A DNA stretch of 64,000 nt from Chloroflexota bacterium (GCA_034423235.1 DAOUIX010000141.1:2158-66157), one strand, 5' to 3'; counted from the first letter of the stretch, positions 16,603 to 61,945 are shown. Numbers and translations are program-made. Notes: generated by a model from the letters alone, not told the origin.

Positions 16603-16770
16603 TCAGTGGCTTGACGCTTCCCGCCCTGCGTGCGGCGCATCGAGCTGCCCACGCAGATCTTGTAACTCGTCGCGCACGCTGCGCACGCGGCCGGTGACGT
16701 AGACCAGGTAGCCGAAAATCCCAAGCCACACGGCACCGAAGCCGATGAAGAGATACAGCAGGTCGCTCAT
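16603..16770 (-). CDS. ccmD: Heme exporter protein CcmD (small ORF absent from the >=60 aa track)
   Basis: My own translation: MSDLLYLFIGFGAVWLGIFGYLVYVTGRVRSVRDELQDLRGQLDAPHAGREASSH (55 aa). One TM followed by a charged tail. Its ATG overlaps the ccmC stop (ATGA), and it sits between ccmC and ccmF as in canonical ccm operons. Confidence 0.6.
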   Translation of the reverse strand: MSDLLYLFIGFGAVWLGIFGYLVYVTGRVRSVRDELQDLRGQLDAPHAGREASSH

Positions 16771-17513: not shown

Positions 17514-17525
17514 TCCTGCCTCCCG

Positions 17526-18875: not shown

Positions 18876-18940
18876 GGCCGGCGGCGCTGCCTGTGAACTT
18901 CGCGAATCGCCGAACGCGGGAGCTTCGACTTTGTCTGCCC

Positions 18941-19387: not shown

Positions 19388-19403
19388 CGTGTCCGGGTCC
19401 AGC

Positions 19404-23722: not shown

Positions 23723-24555
23723 GCGTGCGCCCCGGCGTGCGCGTGCTCGTCTTCGTGAATCTCCGCGTGCGGATCCACCTTCTTGAGGTAGATGATGCCG
23801 GGGTCGGTTCCGAAGTGTTCAAGCAGCGTGTAGCCGCGGTCGGCTTCGGCCTCGGCCAGGCGCGCGGGCGCGCTCTCGGGGTTGTTGATATCGCAGAAGA
23901 CGAGGGCGCTGGTCGGGCACGACTGTGCGCAGGCCGGCTGAACTTCGCCGGGGCGGAGGTCGCGTCCTTCGGTGCCCGCCGTCACGTGCGCGCGGTTGAT
24001 CCGCTGCACGCAGAAGGTGCATTTTTCGATGATGCCCTTCGTGCGCACCGTCACTTCCGGGTTGAGCTGGTTGTTCAGCGGCTCCGGCCACTCCGGATTC
24101 CAGAAGTTGAAGTAGCGCACCGAGTACGGGCAGCCGTTGGCGCAGAACCGGGTGCCGATGCAGCGGTTGTAGACCTGGACGTTCAAGCCCTCGTTGTTGT
24201 GGTACGTGGCCCAGACCGGACAGACCGTCTCGCACGGCGCGTTGCCGCAGTGTTGGCACAGCACCGGGATAAAGCGGGCCTTCGCGTTCGGGAACTCGCC
24301 TTCCCAGTAGCGTTCGATCCGGATCCAGGTCTTGGCCCGGCGCTCCAGCACGCGCTGTTCTTCGTTGAGGGCGATGTTGTTTTCGGCCTGGCAAGCCACC
24401 ACGCAGGCCTGGCAGCCGGTGCAGCGATCCAGGTCTACCACCATGCCCCAGCGCACGCCCTCGGGATGAGGGACTTCGGCATCCGTGGGAATCGTTCGTC
24501 CCATCTCGGAGACGGCGCTGGCGCGGGCGGCGGCCTCGTTGGCTGAGCTACTCAT
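23719..24555 (-). CDS. actB2: ACIII 4Fe-4S ferredoxin-like subunit (ActB2; PsrB/DmsB-like)
   Basis: Multiple Cys clusters: CTGCQACVVACQAEN, CQHCGNAPCETVCP, CIGTRFCANGCP, CTFCVQR, CAQSCP. Its ATG overlaps the ActB1 stop. Confidence 0.85.
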   Translation of the reverse strand: MSSSANEAAARASAVSEMGRTIPTDAEVPHPEGVRWGMVVDLDRCTGCQACVVACQAENNIALNEEQRVLERRAKTWIRIERYWEGEFPNAKARFIPVLCQHCGNAPCETVCPVWATYHNNEGLNVQVYNRCIGTRFCANGCPYSVRYFNFWNPEWPEPLNNQLNPEVTVRTKGIIEKCTFCVQRINRAHVTAGTEGRDLRPGEVQPACAQSCPTSALVFCDINNPESAPARLAEAEADRGYTLLEHFGTDPGIIYLKKVDPHAEIHEDEHAHAGAHA

Positions 24556-26798: not shown

Positions 26799-27346
26799 GT
26801 CGCGCAGTCCAACGAGGCGGAGTTCTCGCGGTGGCAACCCTGACAATCTCCCATGGCGAGGGAGCGTACCTGCTTGACTTCCTTCATCGAGGCCACGTCG
26901 CCGTGGCAGGTCTCGCACGCGACCCCCGCCTGGATGTGCGGCGCGTGGACGAAGCGCACGTGATCAGGCACGCGATGCACGCGCGCCCAGTTCACCGGCG
27001 TCTGTGTGTCCCAGTGCGCTTGCAGCAATTGAATCTGTGGGCTGTCGGTCTTCACGACCGAGTGGCAGAACATGCACTGCTCGACCGAGGGCACCGTGGC
27101 GGCGGCCTGCGTGCCCACACCGCGGTGACAAAACTCGCAAGGAATGGCCGCATCGCCGGCGTGTACCGAGTGGTCGAAGGCGATCGGCTGTTGCGGCGCG
27201 GGCGTTGCCGTCCCACCTGAAGCCATGAGAAACAGCAGAATGGCCAATACTCCCGCGCCCCCCAGCAGCAACGGCGCCGTGGCGCCTGCAAGGATCAAGG
27301 TCTGTTTGAGCGTGACGCGCGGCAGGAGGGCCGTCAGGTACTGCAT
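26786..27346 (-). CDS. actA: Pentaheme cytochrome c (ActA)
   Basis: Five CxxCH motifs (CEFCH, CMFCH, CETCH, CQGCH, CATCH) after an N-terminal TM anchor. Confidence 0.85.
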   Translation of the reverse strand: MQYLTALLPRVTLKQTLILAGATAPLLLGGAGVLAILLFLMASGGTATPAPQQPIAFDHSVHAGDAAIPCEFCHRGVGTQAAATVPSVEQCMFCHSVVKTDSPQIQLLQAHWDTQTPVNWARVHRVPDHVRFVHAPHIQAGVACETCHGDVASMKEVKQVRSLAMGDCQGCHRENSASLDCATCHK

Positions 27347-27350
27347 ACCG

Positions 27351-27674
27351 CTAGATCGCCAGCCGCGGGTAGATGTCCGGCAGGATGTTCAGCGCCAGCA
27401 GCGTGGCCTTGATCACCAGTACAACGACGGCGACGCATCCCATGGCCACGATGAGATAGAGCGGGGCGCGCATCCGTCGGGCGACGGCCGCGGGCAGATC
27501 GCCGGTGTCCATCAGTGACGGAATCATGGCGTGCGCCAGCATGTAGGTCAGACCGGTTACGACCAGCGCGGCGGTAAAGAACCAGAGGTGGGCGACCAGT
27601 TCCGAGAGCTTGACCCAGTCGGCGGCCGTGAGCTCGCTTAGTTGCACCCGTGCGTCTCCATCAACACCCGGCAC
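27351..27674 (-). CDS. Small 2-TM membrane protein leading the ACIII operon (possible accessory subunit)
   Basis: 107 aa with two hydrophobic helices. Its stop is 5 nt before the actA start. No recognizable motif. Confidence 0.35.
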   Translation of the reverse strand: MPGVDGDARVQLSELTAADWVKLSELVAHLWFFTAALVVTGLTYMLAHAMIPSLMDTGDLPAAVARRMRAPLYLIVAMGCVAVVVLVIKATLLALNILPDIYPRLAI

Positions 27675-39535: not shown

Positions 39536-40072
39536 CTAGCGCGAGACTTCGCGGATGAGGTGCCGAAGTTCAGGCACCAGGAGATCTCCCAGCGCCAATT
39601 CCACCGCCGCGGTCGAACCCGGCGAGCACACCACCAGCGCCCGTCGGTACTTGCCGGCTACTGCCCGCGACAGGATTGATGCCGCACCGATCTGGTCCCA
39701 ACTAGCCCGCCGGAACCACTCCCCGTAACCGTCCAGCACCTTCTCCAGCATGGGCGTTACCGTGTCCACGGTGATGTCCCGGTCCCCCAGGCCGGTGCCG
39801 CCTGTACAGAACACGAACCGGCTCCCGGCCTCAATGGCGGCGTCGACCGCGGCGCGAATGTCGTCGGCCTCGTTTCGGATCAGGGCCTCGTGAATCACCT
39901 GGTGTCCGCCCGTCTCGATCAGAGCGGTCGCCGTCCGTCCTGATCGGTCAGTCCGCTCTGTCCGGCTGTCGCTGATCACAATCACCGCGCACGCGACTGC
40001 GCCAATCCCCTCGGCCTCGTGCCGGTGTTCACGAGTGGACGCGGATGCGTCGTGCGAATGGTCGTGACTCAC
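39536..40072 (-). CDS. moaB: Molybdenum cofactor biosynthesis protein MoaB/MogA family
   Basis: IVISDSRTE...FVFCTGGTGLGDRDIT...PGS matches the MogA/MoaB fold motifs. Confidence 0.8.
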   Translation of the reverse strand: MSHDHSHDASASTREHRHEAEGIGAVACAVIVISDSRTERTDRSGRTATALIETGGHQVIHEALIRNEADDIRAAVDAAIEAGSRFVFCTGGTGLGDRDITVDTVTPMLEKVLDGYGEWFRRASWDQIGAASILSRAVAGKYRRALVVCSPGSTAAVELALGDLLVPELRHLIREVSR

Positions 40073-40147
40073 GCGCAGTCTCCTAGGTCACAGGTGCGGA
40101 TTCGGAATCATACCCAGCGCGAACCCAGCCGCTGGTAGGCTCACAAC

Positions 40148-40447
40148 ATGGCCAGAGTGAAGCCCTCGGCCGCCACGTCGCCGCCCGAGGCCCCCGACCT
40201 TATTGCCGTGCGCGTCTTGTGCTTCGCCTCGCTGGCGGACCTGATGGGCGAACGGCGGCGCACCGTCAACCTGCCGTCTGGCGCCACCATCGCTGACGCC
40301 TTGAACGAACTGGCGAACGATGTGCCTGAGATCACCTGCCGTGCGCCGCACGTCTCGTTCGCCCTCAACGAAGCGTTTGTGCCCGCGGACACGCCTCTGT
40401 CGGACGGCGACGAACTGGCGCTCATCCCTCCGGTCTCCGGCGGATGA
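40148..40447 (+). CDS. moaD: Molybdopterin synthase sulfur-carrier subunit MoaD
   Basis: Ends ...ELALIPPVSGG and overlaps moaE by 4 nt. The functional start is probably the internal TTG/GTG (IAVRVLCFASL...), giving about 80 aa. Confidence 0.75.
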   Translation: MARVKPSAATSPPEAPDLIAVRVLCFASLADLMGERRRTVNLPSGATIADALNELANDVPEITCRAPHVSFALNEAFVPADTPLSDGDELALIPPVSGG

Positions 40448-40875
40448 TCGTCGAACTCACGTCGGACCCCATCGACGTTCCGCGGCTGATCGACCACGTC
40501 AACCAGCCGTCCAATGGCGGCATCTGCACATTTCTCGGCGTCGTGCGCGACAACGCCGACGGCCGGCCGGTCGTCAAGCTCGGCTACGAGGCCTACGAGT
40601 CGATGGCCGTCGCGCAGATGCGTACGATCGTCGAGGAGGCCATGCGGCGCTGGGACCTGGACGCCGTGGCGCTCTCACACCGTACCGGCGAACTGCGGAT
40701 CGGCGAGGCCAGCGTCGCCATCGCCGTCGGCGCACCCCATCGCGCCGAGGCCTTCGAGGCCTGCCGCTTCATCATCGACACGCTCAAGACCCGTGTCCCG
40801 ATCTGGAAGAAGGAGTTCTTCCAGGACGGTGCCGTTTGGGTCGAACCCGTGTCCTCCCAATCGTCGGCGGGCTGA
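40444..40875 (+). CDS. moaE: Molybdopterin synthase catalytic subunit MoaE
   Basis: GGICTFLGVVRD...SVAIAVGAPHRAEAFEACRFIID.LK...PIWKKE, MoaE signature. Confidence 0.85.
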   Translation: MIVELTSDPIDVPRLIDHVNQPSNGGICTFLGVVRDNADGRPVVKLGYEAYESMAVAQMRTIVEEAMRRWDLDAVALSHRTGELRIGEASVAIAVGAPHRAEAFEACRFIIDTLKTRVPIWKKEFFQDGAVWVEPVSSQSSAG

Positions 40876-40963
40876 TTCGGACCTCGCCTGGGAGGCCCAC
40901 TCAGTCGCGCGCCCACCACTCCACGCGCAAGTACGTCGCGTCAGGCCGGTCGGTTGGGCAGGC

Positions 40964-41188
40964 TCATCCGAATCGCTCCCGACCCTCCCGCACCGTCGCA
41001 ACGATCTCCTCGGTCGACACGCCCAGGTCAACGCCCTCAACGTCCAGGGGCGATGTCCGTGGAGTATCGGGCTGGACCACGAACGCTTGTCCACTTCGTC
41101 TACGAATCATGACAGCGCCATCCTGCTGGGCGACGTCCAGCAACGACGCGAGGTTCTGCCTGGCCTCCGAATAGGTGTAGACCTTCAC
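40964..41188 (-). CDS. Phd/YefM-family type II antitoxin
   Basis: VKVYTYSEARQNLASLLDVAQQDGAVMIRRRSGQAFVVQPD... carries the YSEARQNL YefM signature. GTG start overlaps the VapC stop (GTGA). Confidence 0.7.
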   Translation of the reverse strand: MKVYTYSEARQNLASLLDVAQQDGAVMIRRRSGQAFVVQPDTPRTSPLDVEGVDLGVSTEEIVATVREGRERFG

Positions 41189-41589
41189 GTGCCGACCTCC
41201 AGGACTTCCACTCCAGCGAGGGGCGCAGATATGGCTAGGCGCTTGTCCAATGTGAGCACGGGGCAGCGCATGAGCTGAGCACACGCGAGAACGTAGGCGT
41301 CGTAGGCGTACAGGCCAAGGCGCTGCGACAACCGGAGCGCCTGGCACAAATCCACGTCAATGAACCGGAACAACATTTGTTGGTAGCGCTCGACGGCTAG
41401 TTCGGCCTGCGCCAATGTAATCCGCCTGCGGCGAAGCATCGCGGAAAAGGCATTGCCTACTTCCCAGTGCATAGACGCTGGCGCCAATAGGCTGGCGCCG
41501 ATGGTGTGTTCAACGATTGCGGCGCGTTCCGACTCGTTGGCAATCACGGCGATGACCGCGGAAGTGTCGACAACCACTTTCATGGGCAA
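41185..41589 (-). CDS. vapC: PIN-domain ribonuclease toxin VapC
   Basis: 134 aa with PIN acidic residues: VVDTSAVIA (D), HWEVGNA (E), AYDAYVLA (D), LTLDKRL (D). Confidence 0.8.
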   Translation of the reverse strand: MPMKVVVDTSAVIAVIANESERAAIVEHTIGASLLAPASMHWEVGNAFSAMLRRRRITLAQAELAVERYQQMLFRFIDVDLCQALRLSQRLGLYAYDAYVLACAQLMRCPVLTLDKRLAISAPLAGVEVLEVGT

Positions 41590-41675
41590 TTGTACAAGTA
41601 ATCAGTCTGGTCGTCGCCCGCATTGTCGCCCCTCGAATCCATACTTCGTCGTGGTGGCCGAGCCCTGCCTTCGTG

Positions 41676-43484
41676 TCAGCCCACGTCCTGAGGCGGCTCA
41701 TACCCCAATCGCGCCGCTTCCTCGTAAGCGGCCTGCGCTTCTTCCGCGCGGCCAAGTTCATCCAGAATCTGCCCGCGGGTGTAATGCGCGATCCCCAGTT
41801 CGGGATTAGCCGCCACCGCGGCTTCGATGTCCTCCAGCGCCAGGTCCAGGTCGCCCATCAACATCCGTGCGTCGGCCAGGTTGTTCAGGGTTACCGCGTC
41901 AGCCCCCCGTAACTCCAGCGACCGTTCGTAGTCGGCAATCGCCTCCTGGTAGCGCTCGGCCTGGTGGTGCAGCAGAGCGCGCGCCGCGTAGGCGGACGCG
42001 TCGCTCGGGTCGATCTCGATGGCAGCCGCCAGGTCCTCCAGCGCTCCAGGCTCGTCGCCGAGGGACATGCGGATGCTGGCCCGCAACTCGTAGGCCAGGG
42101 GCAGTCCTGGCTCGTCCTCGATCAGCGCGCTCACCACGGCCAGCGCGTCGTCCAGCCGCTCGGCGAACCGCAGCACATCGGCGTAGAGCAGCCGGACTCC
42201 TACCCGCTCAGGCGCTGCCGCCACCGCGCGTTCCAGGTCCGCCAGCGCCGGCTCGACGTTCTGAAGATCGAGATGCAAGCGCGCCCGCTCGGCCAGGTAG
42301 TCGGGATTGTCGCCGGCAATGTCCAGCGCGCGCGTCAGCGCCTCGATGGCGCCCTCCACGTCACCCTGCGCGCTGAGCGATTGCGCCTGCCCGGCATGCG
42401 CCAAGGGATTGAGAGGATCGATACGAGCGGCCGCGCCATAGTCCTCGGCTGCGCCCATTGCGTCGCCCAGCGCAAGTCGTATGTCGCCGCGCGTGAATAG
42501 GGCAGGGAGAAACTCAGGAGCTATCTCCACCGCATACGTCGCCTCGGCCAGCGCTCGGTCTAATTCGCCGATCCCCTGCAAGGTCAGCGCCAGAACCAAT
42601 GCGGGCCGCGGATCGTCGGGCGAAGCGGCCTTCGCCAGCTCCAGGTCGTTGATGGCGGCATCGATTTCCTCCATCGCCAGGTACAGGCGGGCACGCTCGA
42701 TCAGATAGGCGGCGTTATTGGTGGAAATGTCGATAGCACGCGAAAGGGCGTCAACGGCGCCGGGAAGATCGCCTTGCGCCGCAAGAGCCCGTCCGTGCCC
42801 GAGGTGCGCCGAGGAGTTAAGCGGTTCGATTCGTATGGCCGACGTGTAGTCCTCGGCGGCGGCGGCAGCATTTCCCAACGCCAGGTGAATGTCGGCGCGC
42901 GTGATGAGCGCGGGCAGAAACTCGGGCGCCACTTCGACGGCCCGCGTCGCCTCGGCCAGCGCTCCTTCCAGGTCGCCGGCGAACTGATCCGCCAGCGCCA
43001 TCCCCATCAGGGGACGCGGGTCGTCCGGTACAGCCTCGGCCGCAGACTCGAATAACTTCCGAGCCTCCTCCAGGTCACCGCCCTGCAGAAGCTCCAGCGC
43101 GCGCTCGAGGTCGGCCTGAATTGATACCGGCGTTGCGGCCGCACCCGGAGAACTGGGCGGCGGTGCAAAGTCTGGCGGCGCCGTAATCACCGGGCTGGCA
43201 GTTGGGGGCGCCGTGACGCGGCCGATGGGCCCGCCGGCCCGCAGGTTTATCGTCGGCAGCCGCGGCGGCGCGTCCGCCGCCGGCGACTGATTTGCCGTTG
43301 GCGCAGCGGACGGCGTTATTGGCTCTGCCGCTGGCGATGGGGTGTCCGGCGTCTCCGTGACGAGAGGCGGATCGGTGGGCGACTCGCCGCAAGCCATCGC
43401 CGCGGCTGCCAGAAGCGCTCCCCCGAGCAGCAAGCCGGTGGCTTCCCGGCAGCGCCGTGTGCGGGCAGCTAGAAGGCCGGTCAC
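41676..43484 (-). CDS. TPR-repeat lipoprotein
   Basis: GTG start overlaps the upstream gene's stop. Lipobox AAAMACGE, a Pro/Ala/Thr-rich linker, then about 12 TPR-like units (repeated A..A...Y..A..IDP.N..A... pattern). Confidence 0.7.
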   Translation of the reverse strand: MTGLLAARTRRCREATGLLLGGALLAAAAMACGESPTDPPLVTETPDTPSPAAEPITPSAAPTANQSPAADAPPRLPTINLRAGGPIGRVTAPPTASPVITAPPDFAPPPSSPGAAATPVSIQADLERALELLQGGDLEEARKLFESAAEAVPDDPRPLMGMALADQFAGDLEGALAEATRAVEVAPEFLPALITRADIHLALGNAAAAAEDYTSAIRIEPLNSSAHLGHGRALAAQGDLPGAVDALSRAIDISTNNAAYLIERARLYLAMEEIDAAINDLELAKAASPDDPRPALVLALTLQGIGELDRALAEATYAVEIAPEFLPALFTRGDIRLALGDAMGAAEDYGAAARIDPLNPLAHAGQAQSLSAQGDVEGAIEALTRALDIAGDNPDYLAERARLHLDLQNVEPALADLERAVAAAPERVGVRLLYADVLRFAERLDDALAVVSALIEDEPGLPLAYELRASIRMSLGDEPGALEDLAAAIEIDPSDASAYAARALLHHQAERYQEAIADYERSLELRGADAVTLNNLADARMLMGDLDLALEDIEAAVAANPELGIAHYTRGQILDELGRAEEAQAAYEEAARLGYEPPQDVG

Positions 43485-45331
43485 GAAGGCGCCGGAAAGC
43501 CCATCGCGAACGCGAATTCGTCCTGAAAGTCCGGGACCGCCGACAGTTCCACATAGGAGACCCGCGCCGGCAAGTCCATGGCCCGCACACGCGCGGTAAG
43601 CGAAAGCAGGCACATCCGCGCCCCGTGCCCCGCGGCGTTCCCCACCGCGCGAATGGCTTCGGGGCCGACGTCCGGCACCAGGCCGATCGCGATGGCTCCC
43701 GCGGGATCGATGTAGCTGCCGAAAGCGCCGGCCAGGATCACTTCATCAAGGTCCTCGGCGGCCAGGCCGGCATGTGTCAACAGCACGTTCACCCCGCAAC
43801 GGATGCTCCCCTTGGCCAGTTGCAACTGCCGGATGTCCTGCGCGTGCAGCTTGATGGCCGAATCAGGATCGTCGGCCGATCCGTACAGCACGATCGCGCC
43901 GCCCGTCTGGTCCGGGATGATCCGGTCGGCATGGGCTGGGACGGCTTGCTCGGCCTCTTCCTGCCAGAGCAAGCGCCCACTCGGTGTCACAAGTCCGGTT
44001 CGTACTAACTCGGCCACGGCGTCGACCAACCCCGACCCGCAGATCCCGACGGGCTCGGCGTTGTCGATCATGTCGACCTCTATCGCGTCACCCTCAATGC
44101 GCACGCGCTCGATCGCGCCGGGCGCCGCCCGCATGCCTTGCGAGATCTCAGCGCCCTCAAACGCCGGTCCCGCGGGCGCCGCCGTGGCGAACAGCTCACG
44201 GCCCTTCTGCAGCACGATCTCGCCGTTCGTGCCCACGTCGATCGCCAGCACGTTGCCGCGGCGCCGTCCCAGGTTCGCGCTCAGCATCATTCCCACGATG
44301 TCGCCACCCACGTAGCTCGCCACGTTGGGCGAGATCCACACGGCTGCCGACGGCAACACGTCCAGTCCCACCTCGGCCGCGGTGGCGGTGATGGGATCGA
44401 CCATTGTGGGCACGAACGGCGAATACGAAATGCGCGACGGGTCCGCCCCAATCAACAGGTGTTCCATCACGGTGTTGCCAACGAACGTGAGTTCGTAGAC
44501 CTCGTGTCGCGCCACGCCACTGGCCTCAAGGCACCGCCCGATGATGTCGTTGACCGTCGACCGGACCGCCTGCGTCAGCCGCTCCACCCACTCGGCTCCT
44601 CGCATCGTCACACTCATGCGGCTGATCACGTCGCCGCCGTAGATGTGCTGCCCGTTCAGGCCGGAGGCCACGGCCACCTCTTCGCCCGTCACCAGGTTCA
44701 TCAGCGCCCCGACCACGGTTGTGGTGCCGATGTCGAACGCCAGGCCGAATCCGCGTGCGGTCGTATCGCCCGGCTCAACCGAGATGATCCGGTTCCCGGC
44801 AATCACCACCGTGATCCCGTGGCCGATGTCTTCGCCAATCGCCGCCAGTCGCCGCAGCGCTTCCAGCGATGGATCCAGGTCGCCCGCCACTGCCGCCAGT
44901 TCGTCTTGGATGCGCGACCAGTCGGCGCTCTGATCGTGCAGCGTCGGCTCGGTTGGCTTGACATAAATCTTCTGCACGTCCGGGTCCAGCCGAATTCGTC
45001 CCAACCCGGAACTCTCCACCACCCGCACGGCCCGCACGCCAACCGGGTGCGTATAGACCGCGCTCTCTTCCAGCGGGTGCTGACACGCCAGCCGCCAGCC
45101 GTGCGCCAACTGCTGGTCCGATAGGCGGCGACGGTCGTGCGCGTTCGGCAGCGGCGGTTCGGTCTCGCGAATCAGGACCCGGCAGGTCCCGCACGATCCT
45201 TTGCCGGAGCAGACCGTTTCAACCGGAATGTCGTTGGCCTGCGCGGCATCCAGGATCGTGACGCCCTCGGACGCGGTGATCTCGCGGTCCTCAGGCAGAA
45301 AGCGCGAACGGATAATCGGGTCAACGTTGAT
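43481..45331 (-). CDS. RACo-like protein: N-terminal plant-type [2Fe-2S] ferredoxin domain fused to an ASKHA-fold ATPase (DUF4445)
   Basis: [35 protein letters not shown] ferredoxin domain, a Cys/His-rich linker, then a large ASKHA/DUF4445-type domain ([12 protein letters not shown]...). Start is a probable TTG. Confidence 0.7.
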
Positions 45332-45459
45332 CAAGGAATCCCGCCGGGGCGACGCGAGCGAATGTTGGGCCTGATCTTCGCACGCCCACGGCCCGTGCCG
45401 ATGCCAGCGGCATGCTTGGGTACAATGAGCGGTCCACACAATGGACCCAGGAGAAGCAC

Positions 45460-46089
45460 GCCATGGCGGACGCCCGCGATCAGGGCGGTGAACACCGGCA
45501 CGACTTCGGTCTCGATCAGATTCCGCTGGGCCACCAGCCGTGGGGACGCGCTGACGTGGAGCTTGGCGAGGACACCATTCCGCTCGTCCAGGCCACCAAC
45601 GTCGTTGGTGGCCTCGACATCATCACCACGACCGTGGACAAGCTCTTTACCTGGTGCCAGGCCAATTCCCTGTGGGCCATGGGCTTCGGTCTCGCTTGCT
45701 GCGCCATCGAGATGATGGCCAGCGCCGCGCCCCACTACGACCTGGACCGGTTCGGCACCGTCTTTCGGGCCTCGCCGCGCCAATCGGACGTCATGGTCGT
45801 CTCGGGTACCGTCACCAACAAGATGGCGCCGGTCGTCAAGCGGCTGTATGACCAGATGCCCGACCCCAAGTGGGTCATCGCCATGGGCGCCTGCGCCACC
45901 TGCGGCGGACCCTTCCGCAGCTACAGCACCCTGCAGGGCGTCGACCGTGTGGTTCCGGTCGACATCTACATCGCCGGTTGCCCGCCCCGCCCCGAGGCCC
46001 TGATCGACGGCATCATGGCCCTCCAGCGGAAGATCAATAGCGACGGCATCATGGGAACCGGCCGTAAGACGGAGCCCGTTCAGGCCTGA
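45460..46089 (+). CDS. nuoB: NuoB-like (complex I 20-kDa / NiFe-hydrogenase small-subunit-like) protein, orphan
   Basis: [22 protein letters not shown] and GCPPRPE, the four Cys ligands of the N2 [4Fe-4S] cluster. No other nuo genes within 15 kb on either side. Confidence 0.8.
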
Positions 46090-46097
46090 CACCTCCC

Positions 46098-46802
46098 GTG
46101 AGCGAGGCCGAGGCCCCGCAACCTCAGCGCCTGCGCGTCGAGCTTCACTCGCATACGCACGCGTCTCCGGACTCCCGCCTCTCGGCGGAGACCATCACGC
46201 GCGTCAACCGTGAGCGTGGCATTGATGTCGTGGCTGTTACGGACCACAACACCATGGCCGGCGCCTTCGAGATGGCCGAACGCCTCCCCTTTCCCGTCAT
46301 CCTCGGCGAGGAAATCAAGAGCACCGAAGGTGACATCATCGGCCTGTTTCTGTCCGAAGAGATCCCTCGCGACATGTCGCCTGCAGAAACCGTAGCCGCC
46401 ATACGTGAACAAAATGGCCTGGTGCTGGCCCCCCATCCGTTCGACGGTCTCCGCCGCTCGGCCCTTGGCCGCGAGGCGGTCGACTCCATCGTCGACGACA
46501 TCGACATCCTCGAAGTCTTTAACGGGCGGACTCTCCGTCGTCGGGACAACGACGCCGCCGACCGTTACGCCGACGAACATGGCCTGATTAAGTCCGTCGG
46601 TTCCGACTCCCATCTGGCCGCCGAAATCGGCCACTGCTGCCAGTCCATGCGGCTCTGGGGCGATCCCCAGGACTTCCTGGCATCCCTGCGTGAAGCCGAG
46701 TTGCACGCGACCCTCGCTCCTGCCTGGGTCCACCTGGGAAGTTCGCTGCATGCCTACGCAGCCAAGGTTGAGCGACGCCTTCGACGCCTGACGCGCGCTT
46801 GA
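46098..46802 (+). CDS. PHP-domain metal-dependent phosphoesterase
   Basis: VELHSHTHASPDS, AVTDHNT and HPFD are the PHP His/Asp metal-ligand motifs. Confidence 0.75.
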   Translation: MSEAEAPQPQRLRVELHSHTHASPDSRLSAETITRVNRERGIDVVAVTDHNTMAGAFEMAERLPFPVILGEEIKSTEGDIIGLFLSEEIPRDMSPAETVAAIREQNGLVLAPHPFDGLRRSALGREAVDSIVDDIDILEVFNGRTLRRRDNDAADRYADEHGLIKSVGSDSHLAAEIGHCCQSMRLWGDPQDFLASLREAELHATLAPAWVHLGSSLHAYAAKVERRLRRLTRA

Positions 46803-48166
46803 ACCAGGCAGCCGCCGGCGCTGGGTCGTCTGGCGCGGCTACCCAGTCCCCATCGTTCAACCGGCGCGCGACTACCCTCCTGCTTCCGGCCTCCTTGAAT
46901 CTCGGGATCACCCACGTCCTCGCGCCAGCGCTCAACGGCCTTATGGCCCGCAGCGTCGAGCCGGAAGCCGCCATCGGCGGCTACGCCATTGCCATGGGCG
47001 TCATGGGCCTGGTGGCGCTGCCCCAGATGCGCATCCAGCAACTGACGCTGGTCTTTCTTGACGACCAGGGCTCGCTCAGCCGGCTCCGTCGCTTCGTCGC
47101 GCTATTTGCTCTGCTCAGTGGCCTCGTGGCCGCGGTCGTCGCTTTCACACCCTTGCTCCACGTGCTGCTCGACGGCGTATTCGCCACCACCGGCACTCTC
47201 CGCGCCGAGTCCGCGGCCGCCCTGGTCGCCCTCGCGCCCTTCCCGGTACTGGCCATCGTCCGCACTCACCTCTACGGCGTCGCGCTAAGGATTGGCCGCC
47301 CGCGCCTGGTATGGATCGGCACCGGCGCCGGTGCGGTCGCGGTCATCGCCGTTGCCGCGCTGGTGCTTTGGCTTGACTCGTCGGCCGGTGCAGCCATCGC
47401 CGCCATCGCGGTGACCGCCGGCGCCGGCGTTGAGACCCTCGTTCTCCTCGCGGGTACGGCAGGACCATTGCGCCGTGACCTCACCCCGTCAGCGGATTCG
47501 CCGCCCACCTACGGCGCCCTGCTCCGCTTCTTCGGGCCGCTGTTGGTGGCCGCCTTCCTGCCCGCCGTCACCCAGCCCGTCATCAACGCCATCCTCACGC
47601 GCGCCCCGGAGCCCGAGGCCAGCGTGGCCGCTGTGTCGCTCACCTTTGGCGTCAACCAGATCTTCCTGATCGCCCTCTGGGGCGTGCAGCCAACCCTGCT
47701 GGCCCTCATGGCTCGCGGCGAGAACCCCGCGGCCGCCCGGCGCTTCGCCAACATCGTCGGACTCATCACCGTGGGTCCCTCCGCCGTCGTCGCGTTCATT
47801 CCTGCGCTCACCAGCCTCGTCGTCCACGACTGGCTGGGCGCTACCGGCCGGCTTCAGGAGATGACCGAAACCGGCCTGCGCATCCTGGCCCTGCTGCCGC
47901 CCATCTTCGTGCAGGAAGCCATCTTCACCAGCGCCATCCTGCGCGTGCGCCGGGCCCATCTCCTCGTATACGTCAACGCGATCCGGCTCGTCGGACTTGT
48001 CGCCATCCTGCTCATCGGCGTCAACGCCACCGACCTGTCCGGCGGAGTCATTGGCATTACGGCTATCGGCGGCGCGCTCGTCATCGAAGCGATCGCGACC
48101 GTTGCCCTGGGCCGTGGCGCGCAGCGCCAACTCGAACGCGGATGGCAACCGCCTTTTTCCTTTTGA
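46799..48166 (+). CDS. Polytopic membrane protein, MOP-flippase/MATE-like (Wzx/MurJ-like)
   Basis: 455 aa, about 12-14 TM helices, Ala/Leu-rich, internal two-fold repeat. No catalytic motifs. Confidence 0.45.
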   Translation: MNQAAAGAGSSGAATQSPSFNRRATTLLLPASLNLGITHVLAPALNGLMARSVEPEAAIGGYAIAMGVMGLVALPQMRIQQLTLVFLDDQGSLSRLRRFVALFALLSGLVAAVVAFTPLLHVLLDGVFATTGTLRAESAAALVALAPFPVLAIVRTHLYGVALRIGRPRLVWIGTGAGAVAVIAVAALVLWLDSSAGAAIAAIAVTAGAGVETLVLLAGTAGPLRRDLTPSADSPPTYGALLRFFGPLLVAAFLPAVTQPVINAILTRAPEPEASVAAVSLTFGVNQIFLIALWGVQPTLLALMARGENPAAARRFANIVGLITVGPSAVVAFIPALTSLVVHDWLGATGRLQEMTETGLRILALLPPIFVQEAIFTSAILRVRRAHLLVYVNAIRLVGLVAILLIGVNATDLSGGVIGITAIGGALVIEAIATVALGRGAQRQLERGWQPPFSF

Positions 48167-54787: not shown

Positions 54788-55408
54788 CTAGTCGGGCCGC
54801 GCGTCCTCGGCCGACGAGCCCTTCTGCCGCTCGAGTTCCCCGTGCACGTGCAGGATGCGTTGAATCGCGGTGATCTGCGTCACCACGCTGAGCAGCCACA
54901 GACCGGCGCTCAGCAGCCAGGCCGGTCCCAGCAGGGCAATGCCCAGCACCAGCAGGCGCTCCGGCCGCTGAAGAACCCCAATCTCGCAGTCCACGCCCAA
55001 ACCCTCGGCGCGCGCTCGCGTGTAACTGATCAGCATCGAACCCAGCATCGTGGTCACGGCCAGCACCACCTCGATCCGCGCGTCCTGTGCCACGAAATAC
55101 CAGACCAGCCCCGTGAAGATCAGCCCTTCCGCCCAGCGATCCAGGGTCGAGTCCAGAAACGCGCCGAACTTCGATCCGTTGCCGCTCACGCGCGCTACCG
55201 CGCCGTCCAGCATGTCGAACCCACCGGTCACCAGCACCAGTAGCCCGCCGGCCAGCGTCCAGCCAAAGCCGATGCAGACGGCCGTGACGACGCTCACCAG
55301 CAGGCCAGCCACCGTGAGCGCGTTCGGATCGATCCCGGTCCGAGCCAGCGGACCCACCAGGCGCTCCACCGTGCGGCGCGTGCTTGCCTCGATGTGCGCC
55401 TTGTTCAC
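54788..55408 (-). CDS. CDP-alcohol phosphatidyltransferase (PgsA/phosphatidylinositol-phosphate synthase-like)
   Basis: DMLDGAVAR...G...GAFLDSTLDRWAE is the D-G-x-AR...G...D...D signature. 5-6 TM helices. Confidence 0.85.
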   Translation of the reverse strand: MNKAHIEASTRRTVERLVGPLARTGIDPNALTVAGLLVSVVTAVCIGFGWTLAGGLLVLVTGGFDMLDGAVARVSGNGSKFGAFLDSTLDRWAEGLIFTGLVWYFVAQDARIEVVLAVTTMLGSMLISYTRARAEGLGVDCEIGVLQRPERLLVLGIALLGPAWLLSAGLWLLSVVTQITAIQRILHVHGELERQKGSSAEDARPD

Positions 55409-56592
55409 GGTGGCGAGCCCCCGGCCCGAACCAGGTCCGCGTCGGCTGACCAGTAGGCCGCGCCAAGTTCGTCCTCGTTGAGTAGTTCCTCGTAGTAGGC
55501 CACCACGCGGTCCGTAATCGTGCTCCAGGTGAAGTCATGGGCGCGTCGCCGTCCGGCCTCCGCCATCCGCCGGCTCTTGTCCGGATTGTCCGACACGCGC
55601 ATCAGGGCGCGTGCCAGCGCGACGTGATCCTTGGGCGGCACCAGGATTGCCGCCTCCTGGTCGGTCAGCATGGTGCGCGAGGCGGGTATGTCCGAGGCCA
55701 CCACTGGCGTCCCGGCCGCCATGGCCTCCAGCAGCGTAATGCCTTGGCTCTCGCCGCCCAGCGCCGGCCAGCAGAAGATGTCGGCCGTCTGCAGGTACTG
55801 GCGCTTTTCCTCGTCCGAGACAAAGCCCTTGAACAGAACGTGCCGCAGGCCGAACTGCCGAACCTGTCGCAGATACGCGCGTCGCTGACCCGGTCGAAAC
55901 GCCCCAATCACGATCAGTCGAGCCTGCGGTCGCAGCTGGCACACCAGCGCCATAGCACGCAGCAGGTAGTCCAGGCCCTTGCGCTTCTCCAGCCGACCCA
56001 CGAACACGATGTTCAGCTTGCCGTCCTGCAAGTCGCTGGCCGGCGGCTGCGGTGCGCCATAGAAGTCGACGTCGATCCCGTTCGGGATGATTCGGTAGGC
56101 GCCCTTGTACGAGCGAAAGACCAGCTCCCGCGCCGCCTCGGAAACCGCGATCTTGCCGTGCAGACGGCGCTGCAGCCGCCGGATCAGCGGTCGCGTGGTC
56201 CGGTAGAACAGCGCCGAATTGCGCGCGGCGTGAAACGTACCGACGTTCACGCTCGTCGAGTACTGAAGAACGGTGAGTGGCAGCGCCGGAATCAGCGGCT
56301 CTTGCAGGTGCACGATGTCAAACCGCTGCTGTCGCAGGTAGCGACGCACCCGCGGCAGCAGCTGGGGGGAGAGCGTCAGCCGCGCCCGCGATTGGTTGAC
56401 CGGCAGCGGCACCACGCGAGATCCGATTCGCACGAACCCCGGAAACCGCTCTTCGACTTCGTCGTCGGTGCTTGGCGCCATGATGGCCACCTCGTGGCCG
56501 CGCGCTCGCAGTTCACGTTCCAGATTCAGGATGTGCTGGGTCACGCCCCCCGGGTAGGGGAAGTCGTACGGCGAGACCTGAAGAATCCTCAC
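55405..56592 (-). CDS. GT4-family glycosyltransferase (PimA-like mannosyltransferase)
   Basis: [25 protein letters not shown]-terminus and E-x7-E region near the C-terminus (GGESQGITLLEAMAAGTPVV). GTG start overlaps the acyltransferase stop. Confidence 0.85.
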   Translation of the reverse strand: MRILQVSPYDFPYPGGVTQHILNLERELRARGHEVAIMAPSTDDEVEERFPGFVRIGSRVVPLPVNQSRARLTLSPQLLPRVRRYLRQQRFDIVHLQEPLIPALPLTVLQYSTSVNVGTFHAARNSALFYRTTRPLIRRLQRRLHGKIAVSEAARELVFRSYKGAYRIIPNGIDVDFYGAPQPPASDLQDGKLNIVFVGRLEKRKGLDYLLRAMALVCQLRPQARLIVIGAFRPGQRRAYLRQVRQFGLRHVLFKGFVSDEEKRQYLQTADIFCWPALGGESQGITLLEAMAAGTPVVASDIPASRTMLTDQEAAILVPPKDHVALARALMRVSDNPDKSRRMAEAGRRRAHDFTWSTITDRVVAYYEELLNEDELGAAYWSADADLVRAGGSPP

Positions 56593-57488
56593 GCGTCCAG
56601 CGCCTCCGGCCACATTGGGCGAAACATGTACCACTGGGCCGGCGCCTTGCGAATCAACGTTTCCAGATCCTGCATGACCTGCTGCATGGCCTGCTGAATC
56701 GCCTCGGCCGCCGGTCGGTCTTTGTCGATCACGATCGGTGCCATGCCGTGCGCCGAGTACGTACCGTCGGCGTACCGAATCATCCCGCCGACCAGCAGCG
56801 GGCTGCCGGTATGCCGTGCCAACACCGCCGCGCCCTCCGGCACCCAGACCGGCCGGTCGAAGAACATGACCTGCACGCCCTTGCCCGGCGTCGGCCGGTC
56901 CGCCAGCAACGCCACGAACTCGCCCCGCCGCAACGCACGCAGAATCCCGCGCGCCGCGTTGCCCAACTGGATGGACCGCAGGTTCTTGCGTGCACGAACG
57001 CTGTCCAGCAGGGCGGTCGCCGACCGGCTGCTGAACGTCTCCGCCACGGCGTAGGTGGGCCGGTCAACCGAAACCAGGCTGCCGCAGCAGTCCCAATTGC
57101 CGAAGTGCGCCGTGACCATGATTCCGCCGCGCTCCATCTCTTGGAACTCGCGCCAATGGTGCAGGCCCTCGATGGTCACCGTCTGGCGCAGCAATTCCTC
57201 CGGTGTCATTCGATAGGTGCGCAGGAAATCCACCATGAACTCGGCGTAGTTGATCACCGAGCGCATGGCCAGCGCGCGCACCCGCGGATCGGTCGCCGGC
57301 AGGTTCAGAACCACGGACATGTTGGCCGTGGTGTTCCGACGAATCCTGGGAACCAGCCAGTACACCAACATCCCAAAAAGCCGCGCCAAGCCAAACTTCA
57401 CTGGGCGGGGAACCCACCGCTCGGCGCTGGCCGCAAGGGCGACTAGGGTGATCACGCGCCTACGCGTCGCTCCGGGCGCCGGCGGCAA
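56589..57488 (-). CDS. Lysophospholipid/lipid-A-type acyltransferase (HtrB/PatA-like LPLAT)
   Basis: HFGNWD (the HX4D acyltransferase motif) plus an LPLAT fold. Sits between ino1 and the GT4 gene, as the PIM acyltransferase does in actinobacteria. Confidence 0.75.
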
Positions 57489-58560
57489 TGGTCGCCGTGC
57501 GGATGAACTCCTCCGTCATTACGCGCGCTTCCTCGTCCGAGTACTGGATCGGCGGCGACTTCATCAGGTAGGCCGACGGACCCTCCACCGCACCGCTTAG
57601 CCCGCGGTCCATCGCGATCTTGCAGCAGCGCAGCGCGTCGATCACCACGCCGGCCGAGTTCGGTGAGTCCACCACTTCCAGCTTCAACTCGGCGTTCAAC
57701 GGCTGACCGCCAAACGACACGCCCTCCATCCGGATGTACGCCCACTTGCGGTCGCCTAGCCACGGCACGTAATCGCTGGGCCCGATATGCACATTCTCGG
57801 CGCCGATGTCGTACTCCAACTGGCTTGTAACCGCGTCGGTCTTGGAGATCTTCTTGGACTCCAGCCGTGAGCGCTCCAGCATGTTCTTGAAGTCGGAGTT
57901 CCCGCCCACGTTCAGTTGATACGTGCGTAGAACTTTTACGCCCCGTTCCCGGAAGAGGCGGGTCAGCACCCGGTGGGTAATGGTTGCCCCGATCTGTGAC
58001 TTCACGTCGTCGCCGATGATGGGAACTCCGGCACTGCGAAATCGTCCCTGCCAGTACTCCTCGCGCGCAATGAAAACGGGCATGCAGTTCACCATGGCGC
58101 AACCGGCGTTAAGAATCTGTTCCACGTACCACTTCGTGGCCTCTTCGCTGCCCACCGGCAGGAAGTTCACGACGACGTCCGTGTGCGTATCCCGCAGCAG
58201 TTCCACGATGTTGTCGGTCGCGCCCTCGGCCTTGTACACCGTGTCGGCCATGTAGGCGCCAATGCCGTCGTGGGTCATCCCGCGCATGACGGGTACGCCC
58301 AGGCGGCCGACCTCCGCGAACTGCGGCGTGTTGTTGGGTGGCGCAACCAGGGCTTCGGACAGATCCCTGCCCACTTTGCCGCGATCGATGTCAATGGCGG
58401 CTGAGAACTCAATATCCCCGACGTGGTACGGGCCGAGCTGGGTGTGCATCAACCCCGGAATGAACTCGTCGGCTGCTGCGTCTCGGTAGAAGTTCACGCC
58501 CTGCACCAGCGACGAGGCGCAGTTGCCCACGCCGATAATTCCGACTCGGACTTTCGACAC
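57460..58560 (-). CDS. ino1: myo-Inositol-1-phosphate synthase
   Basis: [25 protein letters not shown]-like region, and a conserved SYNHLGNNDG-equivalent ([10 protein letters not shown]). Length and motifs match bacterial/archaeal MIPS. Confidence 0.9.
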
Positions 58561-58578
58561 GCGTTTCCTCCTCGGAAG

Positions 58579-59026: not shown

Positions 59027-60577
59027 CTAGCGCGCGTACTCCACGGCCCGCGTCTCCCGGATCGTTGTGATCTTGATCTGACCCGGGTACTCCATCGATT
59101 CCTGGATGCGCTTGGCAATGTCGTTCGCCAGCCGCTGAACGCCGGCTTCGTCTACCTGGTCGGGCCGAATCAGCACGCGAAGTTCGCGACCAGCCTGAAT
59201 CGCATAGCAGTTGTCGACGCCGTCGAACGACTGCGCGATCTCCTCCAGTTTCTCTAGTCGCTGCAGATACCGCGTAACGGTCTCCCGTCGCGCCCCGGGA
59301 CGCGACGCTGAAATGGCGTCGGCGGCGGCCACCGCAAACGCCTCGAAGCTGCGCAACTCCACTTCGAAATGGTGCGCTTCGGCGGCGTGCGCTACGTCCT
59401 CGGAGAGCCCGGAGCGTCGCAGCAACGCCCCGCCGATCAGCGCATGCGGACCCTCGATCTCGTGGTCGACAGCCTTGCCGATGTCGTGCAGGAAGCCCGC
59501 CCGGCGCGCCACTTCCACGTCCCCGCCAATCTCGGCGGCCATCGTCGCCGCCAGCAGCGATACCTCCACGGAGTGACTCAGCACGTTCTGCCCGTAGCTC
59601 GTACGGAACCGCAAACGCCCCATGTAGCGCAGGATGTCGCGCGGCAAGGCCGGCGTGCCCGCGTCATAGGCCGCTTGCTCGCCTTCCCGCTCGATGATCT
59701 CTTCGACCTCGGACCGCGCCTTGGTCACCGAGTCCTCAATGCGCGCCGGGTGGATCCGGCCGTCTTCCGTCAGCCGCTGCAAGGCCACCCGTGCCACCTC
59801 GCGCCGCACGGGATCGAACCCCGAAAGCACCACCGTTTCCGGCGTGTCGTCAATGATGATATCAATCCCGGTCGCAGCTTCCAGGGCGCGGATGTTGCGG
59901 CCTTCACGTCCGATGATTCGACCTTTCATGTCGTCGCTCTTGAGGTCGACGACCGATGTGGTGATCTCGGTTGTATGCATCGCCGCCACCCGTTGCAGCG
60001 AGAGCCCAACCAGCCAACGTGCCCGAGTCTCGGCGGTCTCCTTGGCCTCCGCCGTGATCTCGCGCACGCGCTGGTCGCAGATCTCGCGCATCTCGCGTTC
60101 GACCGAGGCCAATAGCTGGTCCTTGGCTTCGTCGCGCGTCAGGCTCGCCGCTGCCTCCAACGCGACCACCTGCTGCTCACGCAGGTCTTCCAGCTCGGAC
60201 TCGCGTCGATCCAGGCCGCGCTTACGGGTATCGAGCGTGTCGTCCCGCTTCAGAAACTCCCGTTCCAGGTCGTCCAGGCGCTCCGAGCGCTTATCCAGCG
60301 TCTGCTCACGTTGCTGGAGTCGACGCTCCTGCTGGCGCAACTCGCGACGGCGCTCGCGCGTTTCGCGTTCCGCATCCGCGCGCTCGTTGCGGATCTTTGC
60401 GCTGGTGTCCTTGATACTGGCTCGTTGTCGGGCTTCGACTTCTGCCAACTCGTGCTCCACCCGGCGCGCGAATTCGCGCCCGCGCGCCTGGGATAGCCGT
60501 ACCTGATAGAAGTAGCCCGCCACGAGCCCTACTACGAGCGCCGCCAGACCGGCGACGATCGCCAATAGGGCTTCCAC
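59027..60577 (-). CDS. rny: Ribonuclease Y
   Basis: N-terminal TM, long coiled-coil, KH domain (GREGRNIRALE), and HD domain (FLHDIGKAVDHE). Confidence 0.9.
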   Translation of the reverse strand: MEALLAIVAGLAALVVGLVAGYFYQVRLSQARGREFARRVEHELAEVEARQRASIKDTSAKIRNERADAERETRERRRELRQQERRLQQREQTLDKRSERLDDLEREFLKRDDTLDTRKRGLDRRESELEDLREQQVVALEAAASLTRDEAKDQLLASVEREMREICDQRVREITAEAKETAETRARWLVGLSLQRVAAMHTTEITTSVVDLKSDDMKGRIIGREGRNIRALEAATGIDIIIDDTPETVVLSGFDPVRREVARVALQRLTEDGRIHPARIEDSVTKARSEVEEIIEREGEQAAYDAGTPALPRDILRYMGRLRFRTSYGQNVLSHSVEVSLLAATMAAEIGGDVEVARRAGFLHDIGKAVDHEIEGPHALIGGALLRRSGLSEDVAHAAEAHHFEVELRSFEAFAVAAADAISASRPGARRETVTRYLQRLEKLEEIAQSFDGVDNCYAIQAGRELRVLIRPDQVDEAGVQRLANDIAKRIQESMEYPGQIKITTIRETRAVEYAR

Positions 60578-60775
60578 GGCTGGCCTCCAGAAGGGTGTGT
60601 TGTACGAACAGTCGAATCAATCGCATTGACGAACTGGTTGGGCGGCGCCACGCGACGCCTCCACGACGCGATGCTACTCGGCGCCCCAAATCGCGGTCAA
60701 AGACCGGACGCCGGTCAGCCGCGCTACGCGCGCCGCTTATACTTCGCCTGACGGCGCCCGCCTTGGAGAGTTCGC

Positions 60776-61945
60776 GTGAATAAAAAGGAAACAAACGGCT
60801 CGATGACCGGACGCCAGCGCTACCTCAACGCGCTCCAGGGCAAGCCGGTAGACCGGATTTGCGTCGGCAGCCCCACGTCCCTGGCGACCTACGAGGAAAT
60901 GCGGCGCCTCGGCATCGAATGGCCCGACGCCCACTACGAGGCCGCGCCGATTGCGCTATTGGCCGAACGCAGCTACACCGACCACGGCTACGACTCGATC
61001 ATGCCCTATTTCAGCATCATCCTCGGCGCCGCCGCCCTGGGCGCCGACATCGAGTGGGGCGAGGACCCCTGGGAATTCGACAAAGGCACCGGCAAGATCA
61101 TTTCCGGCCCCCGTATGCCCGCCGTCAGCCCGCCCAGCCCCTGGACCACCCCGGACGAGATCGTCATTCCCGACGACTTCCTCGAACGCCGCGAGACCAA
61201 GGCTGTCATCGACTCCATCAAGATTCTGCGCGAACGACACCCCGACGCCGCCGTCATTGGCAAAGTCATGGGTCCGTGGACGCTCTCGTACCACATGTTC
61301 GGGCCGCAGGAATTCCTGATCAACGTCATCCTCGATCCCGACTACGTGCATGCCTGCCTCGACCGGCTCATGCCCGCGTCCATCGAGTTCGCCAACGCCC
61401 AGATCGAGGCCGGCGCCGACGCGATCTGTCTGGCCGACCACTCCACCGGTGACCTCGTCCGCGCCGAGACCTACCGCGACTTCCTCATGCCCGTACACCA
61501 GAAGATCACCCCGCAGATCAACTCGCCCGTGATCCTCCACTGCTGTGGCAAGACGCTGGACCGGATGCAATACATCAAGGACGCCGGCTTTGAAGCCTTT
61601 CACTTCGCCACCGAAAACGACCCGCACGAGGCCAAGGCCGTCGTGGGTGACTTCAAACTCGTCGGCAACGTCAGCAACTTCGTCACCTTGCTTACCGGCC
61701 GGCCCGAGGACGTCGCGTTCGAGGTCGAGGACATCGTCTCCGCCGGCATTGACATCATCGCCCCCGAGTGCGCCGTCCCGCCCCAGGTCGCCAACGCCAA
61801 TCTGATGGCCGTGCCGGCCGCCGCGCGAGGTGAATTCCAGGGCGATCCGTCGGTGACCAATCCCAGAAATATGGCCCACGAGTACCGCGTGGACGTCGCC
61901 AAGCAGAGCGCGGCAGCCTCGGCTGGACCGGCCCTCAGCCTCTAG
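60776..61945 (+). CDS. Uroporphyrinogen-decarboxylase-fold protein (MtaA/CmuA-like methyltransferase family)
   Basis: URO-D family TIM barrel. May start at the internal ATG (MTGRQRYLNAL) preceded by AAGGAA. Confidence 0.7.
   Translation: MNKKETNGSMTGRQRYLNALQGKPVDRICVGSPTSLATYEEMRRLGIEWPDAHYEAAPIALLAERSYTDHGYDSIMPYFSIILGAAALGADIEWGEDPWEFDKGTGKIISGPRMPAVSPPSPWTTPDEIVIPDDFLERRETKAVIDSIKILRERHPDAAVIGKVMGPWTLSYHMFGPQEFLINVILDPDYVHACLDRLMPASIEFANAQIEAGADAICLADHSTGDLVRAETYRDFLMPVHQKITPQINSPVILHCCGKTLDRMQYIKDAGFEAFHFATENDPHEAKAVVGDFKLVGNVSNFVTLLTGRPEDVAFEVEDIVSAGIDIIAPECAVPPQVANANLMAVPAAARGEFQGDPSVTNPRNMAHEYRVDVAKQSAAASAGPALSL

Follow-up and report, generated by a model that had tools for sequence, protein, structure and literature searches.

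A nuoB gene encoded apart from other nuo genes and beside a putative corrinoid reactivation gene in a Chloroflexota bacterium is probably an ordinary complex I gene

NuoB is the subunit of complex I that carries the [4Fe-4S] cluster N2 and passes electrons to quinone at the interface between NuoB and NuoD. In a stretch of 64,000 nucleotides (nt) from a Chloroflexota bacterium (GCA_034423235.1 DAOUIX010000141.1:2158-66157), referred to here as the window, a nuoB gene lies away from all other nuo genes and is divergently paired with a gene for a RACo-like protein, which combines a ferredoxin with an ASKHA domain. A first, sequence-only reading of the window had suggested that the two genes could form a small electron-transfer or activation unit. 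The analysis described here leads to a plainer result. The gene is probably an ordinary complex I subunit gene that is encoded apart from the other nuo genes and stands beside an unrelated gene for corrinoid reactivation, and it is most likely the working nuoB of its lineage rather than an extra copy. Two unrelated systems, nuoB and RACo, would simply happen to be neighbours. The reading starts from family assignments, synteny and genomic context, all of which are observed directly. The finding itself is routine annotation of ordinary biology, and the candidate maturation genes that emerged as a by-product are its most useful part. Domain scans confirmed the RACo, NuoB and PHP genes exactly where the sequence-only reading had placed them, and the 128-nt spacer that it had described was recovered from the sequence:

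43481..45334, minus strand: RACo/RamA-type gene, 617 amino acids (aa), TTG start
45335..45462, no strand: divergent intergenic spacer between RACo and nuoB, 128 nt, from the sequence
45463..46089, plus strand: nuoB (complex I 20-kDa, PSST/Nqo6 subunit, cluster N2), 208 aa
46098..46802, plus strand: PHP-family metal-dependent phosphoesterase, Pfam PHP and PHP_C

The product of the nuoB gene scores 247.9 bits with the NCBIfam model NF005012 (cut-off 116), 236.1 bits with TIGR01957 (cut-off 142.7) and 112 bits with the Pfam family PF01058 (Oxidored_q6). The N2 ligands Cys79, Cys80, Cys144 and Cys173 are found in the motifs CCAIE, GAC and GCPPRPE, and in an alignment of 26 NuoB sequences Cys144 and Cys173 are invariant and Cys79 and Cys80 are at least 90% conserved. 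The protein also retains the SPRQSD loop along with the GCPPRPE motif. These family scores and cysteines bear out the earlier description of a complete NuoB with four N2 ligands. Among the PDB entries, the NuoB/NDUFS7 chains of complex I match at 170-223 bits. The highest score, 223 bits, belongs to the NuoB of 7q5y; Nqo6 of Thermus and the mitochondrial NDUFS7 each reach about 205 bits, and Escherichia coli NuoB reaches 173 bits. The core is 66-72% identical to the NuoB of other phyla, and the ratio of nonsynonymous to synonymous substitution rates (dN/dS) of nuoB against relatives is 0.06-0.25. An AlphaFold2 model built on the 26-sequence alignment reached a mean predicted local distance difference test score (pLDDT) of 53, which is too poor to interpret.

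The Oxidored_q6 fold is shared with the small subunits of complexes related to complex I, and together with the isolation of the gene from nuo genes this could point to a small subunit of the Mbh/Mbx/Ech or F420-hydrogenase type. The scores leave this hardly credible. Against the 223 bits reached with complex I NuoB, the protein obtains 118 bits with Mbs, 114 bits with MbhJ and 90 bits with HycG of formate hydrogenlyase (FHL), and only 26 and 22 bits with the F420-hydrogenase-type models FrhG and VhuG. Furthermore, family scans of the window detected no hydrogenase large-subunit gene and no Mrp-antiporter gene. The comparison of NuoB with the subunits of complex I, of Mbh-type complexes and of F420-hydrogenases, which the sequence-only reading had proposed as a check, thus places it by scores closer to complex I, and an Mbh/Ech-type identity was rejected on the NCBIfam and PDB scores.

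Ahead of the core, NuoB carries an N-terminal extension of about 45 aa, in which the motif RHDFG(L/I)DxxPLGxQPWGxA...TIPL is kept in 14 relatives. The extension of roughly 40 aa that had been noted from the sequence is therefore real. A phmmer search with the 55-residue N-terminal stretch against 1.84 billion representatives yielded nothing beyond repeat noise and a fragment of this protein itself. The conserved core begins at residue 8 in 7q5y, at residue 19 in 2fug, at residue 40 in 7awt and at residue 55 in the window NuoB. The N-terminal length varies widely among bona fide NuoB/PSST chains, and therefore the extension alone is no argument against a normal role. Another form of N-terminal addition was seen in P0097, P0100 and P0109, which are NuoB proteins of 337-353 aa with an N-terminal PF04060 domain (putative Fe-S cluster) and about 67% core identity to the window NuoB.

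Searches by tblastn with nuoA to nuoG and with all plus-strand open reading frames of eight nuo operons detected no further nuo gene in the 64-kb window, which agrees with the earlier remark that no nuo partners are nearby, and none was found within about 20 kb of nuoB in the relatives that were fetched. The window encodes succinate dehydrogenase, alternative complex III, Ccm cytochrome c maturation and Mo-hydroxylases. The first three of these mark a respiring organism, in which a complex I would be expected. Stand-alone NuoB modules had been thought rare, and this was not borne out by the 80 genome loci nearest to the window NuoB, 12 of which have no adjacent nuoA, nuoC or nuoD and 5 more of which are partial. 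A nuo operon around the gene is thus usual for nuoB without being a defining feature. The 12 solitary loci belong mostly to Acidobacteriota, with one each labelled Binatus, Chloroflexia and Verrucomicrobiia and one from an unclassified bacterium. In a neighbour-joining tree of NuoB (143 columns, without bootstrap), the solitary NuoBs are scattered among the operonic NuoBs of their own phyla and the window clade forms its own group. In the survey of loci, the closest relatives of the window NuoB come from nuoABCDH-type clusters without adjacent nuoEFG. The solitary nuoBs look like parts of split nuo gene sets and not like a distinct family of orphan redox modules. Literature searches on nuoB in SAR202 and on orphan nuoB in Chloroflexi yielded nothing relevant.

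The neighbours of solitary nuoB genes are of several kinds. Neighbour clustering revealed no universal neighbour of solitary nuoB across phyla, only small groups with NuoI, Methyltransf_28 and Rieske genes. In L095 (10001-13305), nuoB is followed by nuoI, a second nuoB (nuoB2), an NDUFAF7-like Methyltransf_28 gene and a Rieske gene, and this cluster lies directly downstream of iscR-iscS-iscA-fdx-like genes. L096 carries the cluster as well, again next to isc genes. The same nuoB-nuoI-Methyltransf_28-Rieske cluster without nuoB2 is present in L001 (10004-13142), and Methyltransf_28 genes flank nuoA/nuoB in L005, L015 and L022. A small Rieske-type ferredoxin of about 100-126 aa adjoins solitary nuoB at L062:10757-11047, L063:10593-10889, L065:989-1279 and L091:9535-9891, the loci coming from Acidobacteriota, one locus labelled Binatus and one Chloroflexota sister genome. 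It is possible that the Methyltransf_28, isc and Rieske neighbours are bacterial complex I maturation genes.

The gene on the other side of the spacer belongs to another system. The RACo-like protein shows the Pfam domains Fer2, RACo_linker, Raco_middle and RACo_C_ter, that is, a [2Fe-2S] ferredoxin plus ASKHA, and its residues 11-614 align end to end with PDB 3ZYY (329 bits). Cys42, Cys48, Cys51 and Cys84 are present together with the DIGT, DVGTNGE and GAFG motifs, the length of 617 aa from the TTG start agrees with the closest database relatives, and dN/dS against relatives is 0.06-0.22. The protein remains under the equivalog cut-offs of AcsV (NF040756, 425 bits vs 800) and of RamA (TIGR04270, 111.5 bits vs 500), and it is, judged from its sequence, a member of the family and not an orthologue of characterised AcsV or RamA. 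Activases of the RACo/RamA type use ATP to bring a corrinoid whose cobalt has been oxidised to Co(II) back to the Co(I) state, in the service of corrinoid-dependent methyl transfer. The window protein would most likely carry out this ATP-dependent reduction, from Co(II) to Co(I), on a corrinoid protein.

The genomic context of RACo orthologues points in the same direction. They lie beside a corrinoid protein in four independent contexts (L098, L100, L109 and L110), three of which also hold an MtaA-like gene. In L098, RACo is 1.6 Mb from nuoB on one contig and stands beside a corrinoid protein, an MtaA-like gene, a pterin-binding methyltransferase, MTHFR and CobW. In L109, where the distance to nuoB on one contig is 0.4 Mb, RACo is accompanied by a corrinoid protein and an MtaA-like gene, without Pterin_bind, MTHFR or CobW. 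The locus of L100 (Polarisedimenticolia) combines RACo with a corrinoid protein, MTHFR and a pterin-binding gene, with no URO-D gene called in it, and in L110 (GCA_965242905.1) RACo is found with URO-D, a corrinoid protein and a pterin-binding gene. The corresponding gene of the window lies 15 kb away from RACo:

60776..61945, plus strand: MtaA/CmuA-family (URO-D fold) methylcobamide methyltransferase, from TIGR01463 and identity to the L098 gene

It scores 228.7 bits with TIGR01463 (cut-off 235.4) and 57 bits with the hemE model (cut-off 303), by which a HemE identity was rejected. With the URO-D gene that stands beside the RACo orthologue in the corrinoid cluster of L098 it shares 64% identity. 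Its sequence makes it a likely corrinoid-pathway partner of the RACo-like protein, and the link to RACo that had been offered as speculation is thereby supported, with the gene now placed in the MtaA/CmuA type. The complete corrinoid system would have three parts: the corrinoid protein itself, the MtaA-like methyltransferase and a second methyltransferase that binds methyl-tetrahydrofolate. Once reactivated, the corrinoid protein would most likely carry methyl groups between tetrahydrofolate and whichever substrate or thiol the MtaA-like enzyme handles.

Two further features of these corrinoid loci were recorded. The corrinoid proteins at L098:6731-7600 (-) and L109:8812-9681 (-) have 289-290 aa. 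Corrinoid proteins are usually some 210 aa long, and such proteins cover no more than about 70% of a query of the L098/L109 type, which exceeds them by about 80 residues at its N-terminus. The RACo corrinoid cluster of L100 (113-9875) is flanked by RNase Y and moaE/moaD, with counterparts near the RACo and MtaA-like genes of the window (40148-45334 and 59027-61945). This likeness may be a coincidence, the trace of an older arrangement or the result of transfer.

The sequence-only reading had taken the role of RACo proteins in aerobes to be unknown, and this statement is out of date, since B12 reactivation has been implicated in marine bacteria that grow aerobically. In Phaeobacter inhibens, a RamA-like protein that has both a ferredoxin and a DUF4445 domain is needed during aerobic growth for a three-part B12-dependent methionine synthase to make methionine, and its gene PGA1_c15200 is encoded away from the partner genes (PMC5764234). 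In Ruegeria pomeroyi, RamA (SPO2041) is induced with the modular MtgBCD/methionine synthase system (PMC12478193).

The pairing of nuoB with RACo is confined to one shallow clade, defined here by NuoB at least 78% identical to that of the window (78-97%; tblastn/BLASTP) and comprising 13 loci. RACo and nuoB are divergent in L081/82, L084-87, L097 and the metagenome contigs L104-108, a metagenome scan with the RACo query having returned 5 close relatives. The whole block of moaDE, the TPR gene (not in every locus), RACo, nuoB, PHP and a membrane-protein gene is kept in this clade. In the sister genomes, whose NuoB is 69-74% identical over the matched core, nuoB remains solitary in other company: in L088-90, L093-94 and L103 it is divergent from an ApbC/Mrp Fe-S carrier (NF008669, 317 bits), and in L091-92 it follows a Rieske ferredoxin, with no RACo alongside. 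The carrier genes lie, for example, at L088:8705-9775 (-), L093:8957-9784 (-) and L103:8977-9393 (-), and no Mrp-family match was obtained in the window. RACo is absent from all 80 other nuoB loci, and no nuoB lies at any of the RACo loci outside the shallow clade (L098-L102, L109 and L110). The pair is missing from the sister clades and is kept as part of a larger synteny block. This makes it a rearrangement derived within one clade and not a conserved two-gene module. The divergent layout with the PHP and membrane-protein genes would accordingly be read as a synteny block of one shallow clade rather than as a functional module.

Within the spacer, a Shine-Dalgarno sequence GGAGAA at 45450-45455 precedes the ATG of nuoB by 7 nt, and a -10-like TACAAT is found at 45421-45426, about 40 nt 5' of the ATG. 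The TACAAT box is kept upstream of nuoB in the window and in L084, L086, L081 and L097, and the remaining spacer diverges. A scan of the 128 nt for sigma-70 consensus promoters and terminators gave no matches. The solitary nuoB probably has its own promoter.

Several observations weigh against the conclusion that the gene is the one ordinary nuoB of its lineage, next to an activase that serves something else. The other nuo genes of the lineage were not located, so that we infer, rather than observe, that the gene is the sole nuoB. L095 carries two nuoB paralogues in one genome, and in the unbootstrapped neighbour-joining tree of 143 columns the window-clade NuoB is not grouped with the NuoB of Chloroflexia/Anaerolineae. 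The NuoB extension is private to the shallow clade, is conserved and occurs exactly where RACo adjoins. As for the corrinoid system, the best 120 matches to a sister-clade corrinoid-protein query contained no shallow-clade orthologue, only proteins of the sister clades, and the window itself has no gene of the B12-binding, MTHFR or pterin-binding kind. The set of RACo partners in the shallow clade is incomplete as far as seen.

The separation of the clade from other Chloroflexota NuoB in the tree, the conserved clade-specific extension with no homologues elsewhere and the two nuoB genes within one cluster in L095/L096 would suit a second, specialised nuoB paralogue, which takes the place of the usual subunit in complex I under certain conditions or works in a different complex, with a canonical nuo operon and its own nuoB elsewhere in the genome. 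We regard this as unlikely. In its core the protein is very highly identical to canonical NuoB and retains the N2 and Q-site motifs intact, and purifying selection on nuoB is as strong as in the neighbouring genes. In the wider clade, every genome sampled has a single solitary copy of this kind. Among the best 120 matches, none of the clade's complete genomes is represented by a second NuoB, a result that speaks only against further copies with more than about 66% core identity. Moreover, the nearest relatives from nuoABCDH-type clusters could explain the position in the tree without paralogy. The gene is still most likely the working nuoB of the lineage, whose product would assemble into complex I.

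The earlier proposal of a NuoB/RACo electron-transfer unit has some of the same observations on its side. The divergent pair is maintained in all 13 shallow-clade loci despite near-saturated synonymous divergence, the N-terminal extension of NuoB is found in the same clade, the activase of this clade is separated from the ancestral corrinoid cluster, and its corrinoid-protein orthologue is missing from the 120 matches mentioned above. A small co-regulated unit could be imagined in which NuoB is a dedicated low-potential donor to RACo, or in which a NuoB-containing module undergoes ATP-driven reductive activation or repair. Such a unit is nevertheless highly improbable. The sister clades keep both genes at a distance of 0.4-1.6 Mb, a RACo gene is lacking at each of the 80 other nuoB loci, and nuoB is lacking at the RACo loci outside the shallow clade. 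The synteny spans the whole block from moaDE through RACo, nuoB and PHP to the membrane-protein gene and not the pair alone, and the spacer is conserved only around the -10-like box of nuoB. In addition, without NuoD, NuoB is not known to be either functional or stable. The proposal found no support in the co-occurrence of the two genes across genomes, where the adjacency is limited to the 13 loci of one shallow clade and is gone in the next-closest genomes, in which either gene has other neighbours that make functional sense. An ordinary nuoB beside a gene of an unrelated corrinoid system remains the preferred account.

The other genes next to the pair are the following:

46799..48166, plus strand: multi-pass membrane protein, 455 aa, no Pfam family
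41676..43484, minus strand: TPR-repeat protein with lipoprotein-like signal peptide, Pfam TPR families

The gap between nuoB and the PHP gene is 8 nt, and the stop of the PHP gene overlaps the start of the membrane-protein gene by 4 nt; nuoB and the PHP gene are probably co-transcribed. The PHP protein has its PHP and PHP_C domains above the Pfam cut-offs and an ELHSHTH motif near the N-terminus, its best PDB match is the putative metal-dependent phosphoesterase 3e0f (43 bits), and all NCBIfam models remained under their cut-offs (CehA/McbA 54 vs 80, RNase RNM 37 vs 375). The gene is found downstream of nuoB in the shallow clade only. The synteny of the 455-aa membrane protein is likewise confined to this clade, and its orthologue in L097 has a weak match to ANKH. 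On the other side, the GTG start of the TPR gene overlaps the stop of RACo (GTGA), as read from the sequence. The TPR gene evolves fast, with 62-72% identity in the closer loci and 30% in L081, and it is missing from some relatives; in L105, L106 and L108, moaE comes directly after RACo with no TPR gene between. In the window, a Phd/YefM antitoxin and a PIN-domain toxin (40964-41589, minus strand) are inserted between moaE and the TPR gene, and in the relatives L084-L086 only the antitoxin was called. MogA-like and MoaD/MoaE genes are located at 39536-40875.

The nearer neighbours of the RACo-nuoB-PHP trio are unrelated housekeeping genes, and the G+C content of the window is about 66% throughout. 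The alternative complex III operon (19892-27388, minus strand) comprises a multihaem ActA, an ActB divided between a molybdopterin-like and a Fer4 part, a pair of NrfD-type subunits, ActD and the cytochrome c ActE. Directly downstream of it lies a Ccm system I set (14552-19441), which includes a CcmA-CcmB fusion. The regions 53-6473 and 9015-11605, both on the minus strand, contain two tandem Mo-hydroxylase large subunits of the xanthine dehydrogenase/CO dehydrogenase family, an FAD subunit and SdhB/SdhA. Genes for a CDP-alcohol phosphatidyltransferase, a GT4 glycosyltransferase, a lipid A-type acyltransferase and a myo-inositol-1-phosphate synthase (54788-58578, minus strand) resemble a set for the synthesis of phosphatidylinositol mannoside-like lipids.

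For annotation, a lone nuoB in genomes of Chloroflexota or Acidobacteriota should not be labelled an orphan redox module. Where an aerobe has a gene of the ferredoxin-ASKHA (DUF4445) kind, the best reading is that of a B12 reactivation factor that serves a modular corrinoid methyltransferase. The ApbC/Mrp carriers, the isc genes, the NDUFAF7-like methyltransferase and the small Rieske ferredoxins that recur by solitary nuoB are candidate bacterial complex I assembly factors.

Among known systems, the RACo of Carboxydothermus hydrogenoformans (3ZYY, 4C1N) and the RamA-type activases have the four-part architecture of the window protein in common with it, and the window protein also has the [2Fe-2S] cysteines and the ASKHA motifs for phosphate binding. 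Unlike the RACo of C. hydrogenoformans, the window gene stands without a CoFeSP/acs context. PGA1_c15200 of P. inhibens and SPO2041 of R. pomeroyi belong to the same domain family as the window protein, a likeness drawn by domain family only, and in contrast to those two systems the partner in the window lineage includes an MtaA-like (URO-D fold) methyltransferase and not only MetH-type modules.

For NuoB, the comparison is with the NuoB/Nqo6/NDUFS7 subunits of complex I (7q5y chain F, Thermus thermophilus 2fug chain 6, E. coli 7awt chain B), which share its domain and the N2 cysteines including the tandem CC. Unlike a typical complex I nuoB, the window gene has no nuoA, nuoC or nuoD neighbours, and its product bears the clade-specific N-terminal extension of about 45 aa. 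In mitochondria, the Mrp/NBP35-family Fe-S carrier Ind1/NUBPL is required for complex I assembly. The ApbC/Mrp carrier beside nuoB in the sister clade, which is not present in the window, is likened to it by family and would fit Fe-S delivery to NuoB. Dispersed gene sets are known from cyanobacteria, which have ndhC-K-J plus dispersed ndh genes, and from Aquifex aeolicus, which has several nuo loci. 'Nuo-partial' clusters have been described among split complex I gene sets (10.1101/2025.03.13.643058), and in all of these the core subunits are encoded at several loci, as with the 12 of 80 nuoB loci here. The window nuoB stands alone, whereas the nuoB of cyanobacteria and Acidobacteriota usually keeps a partner, either ndhC/J or nuoI (L001, L003, L095).

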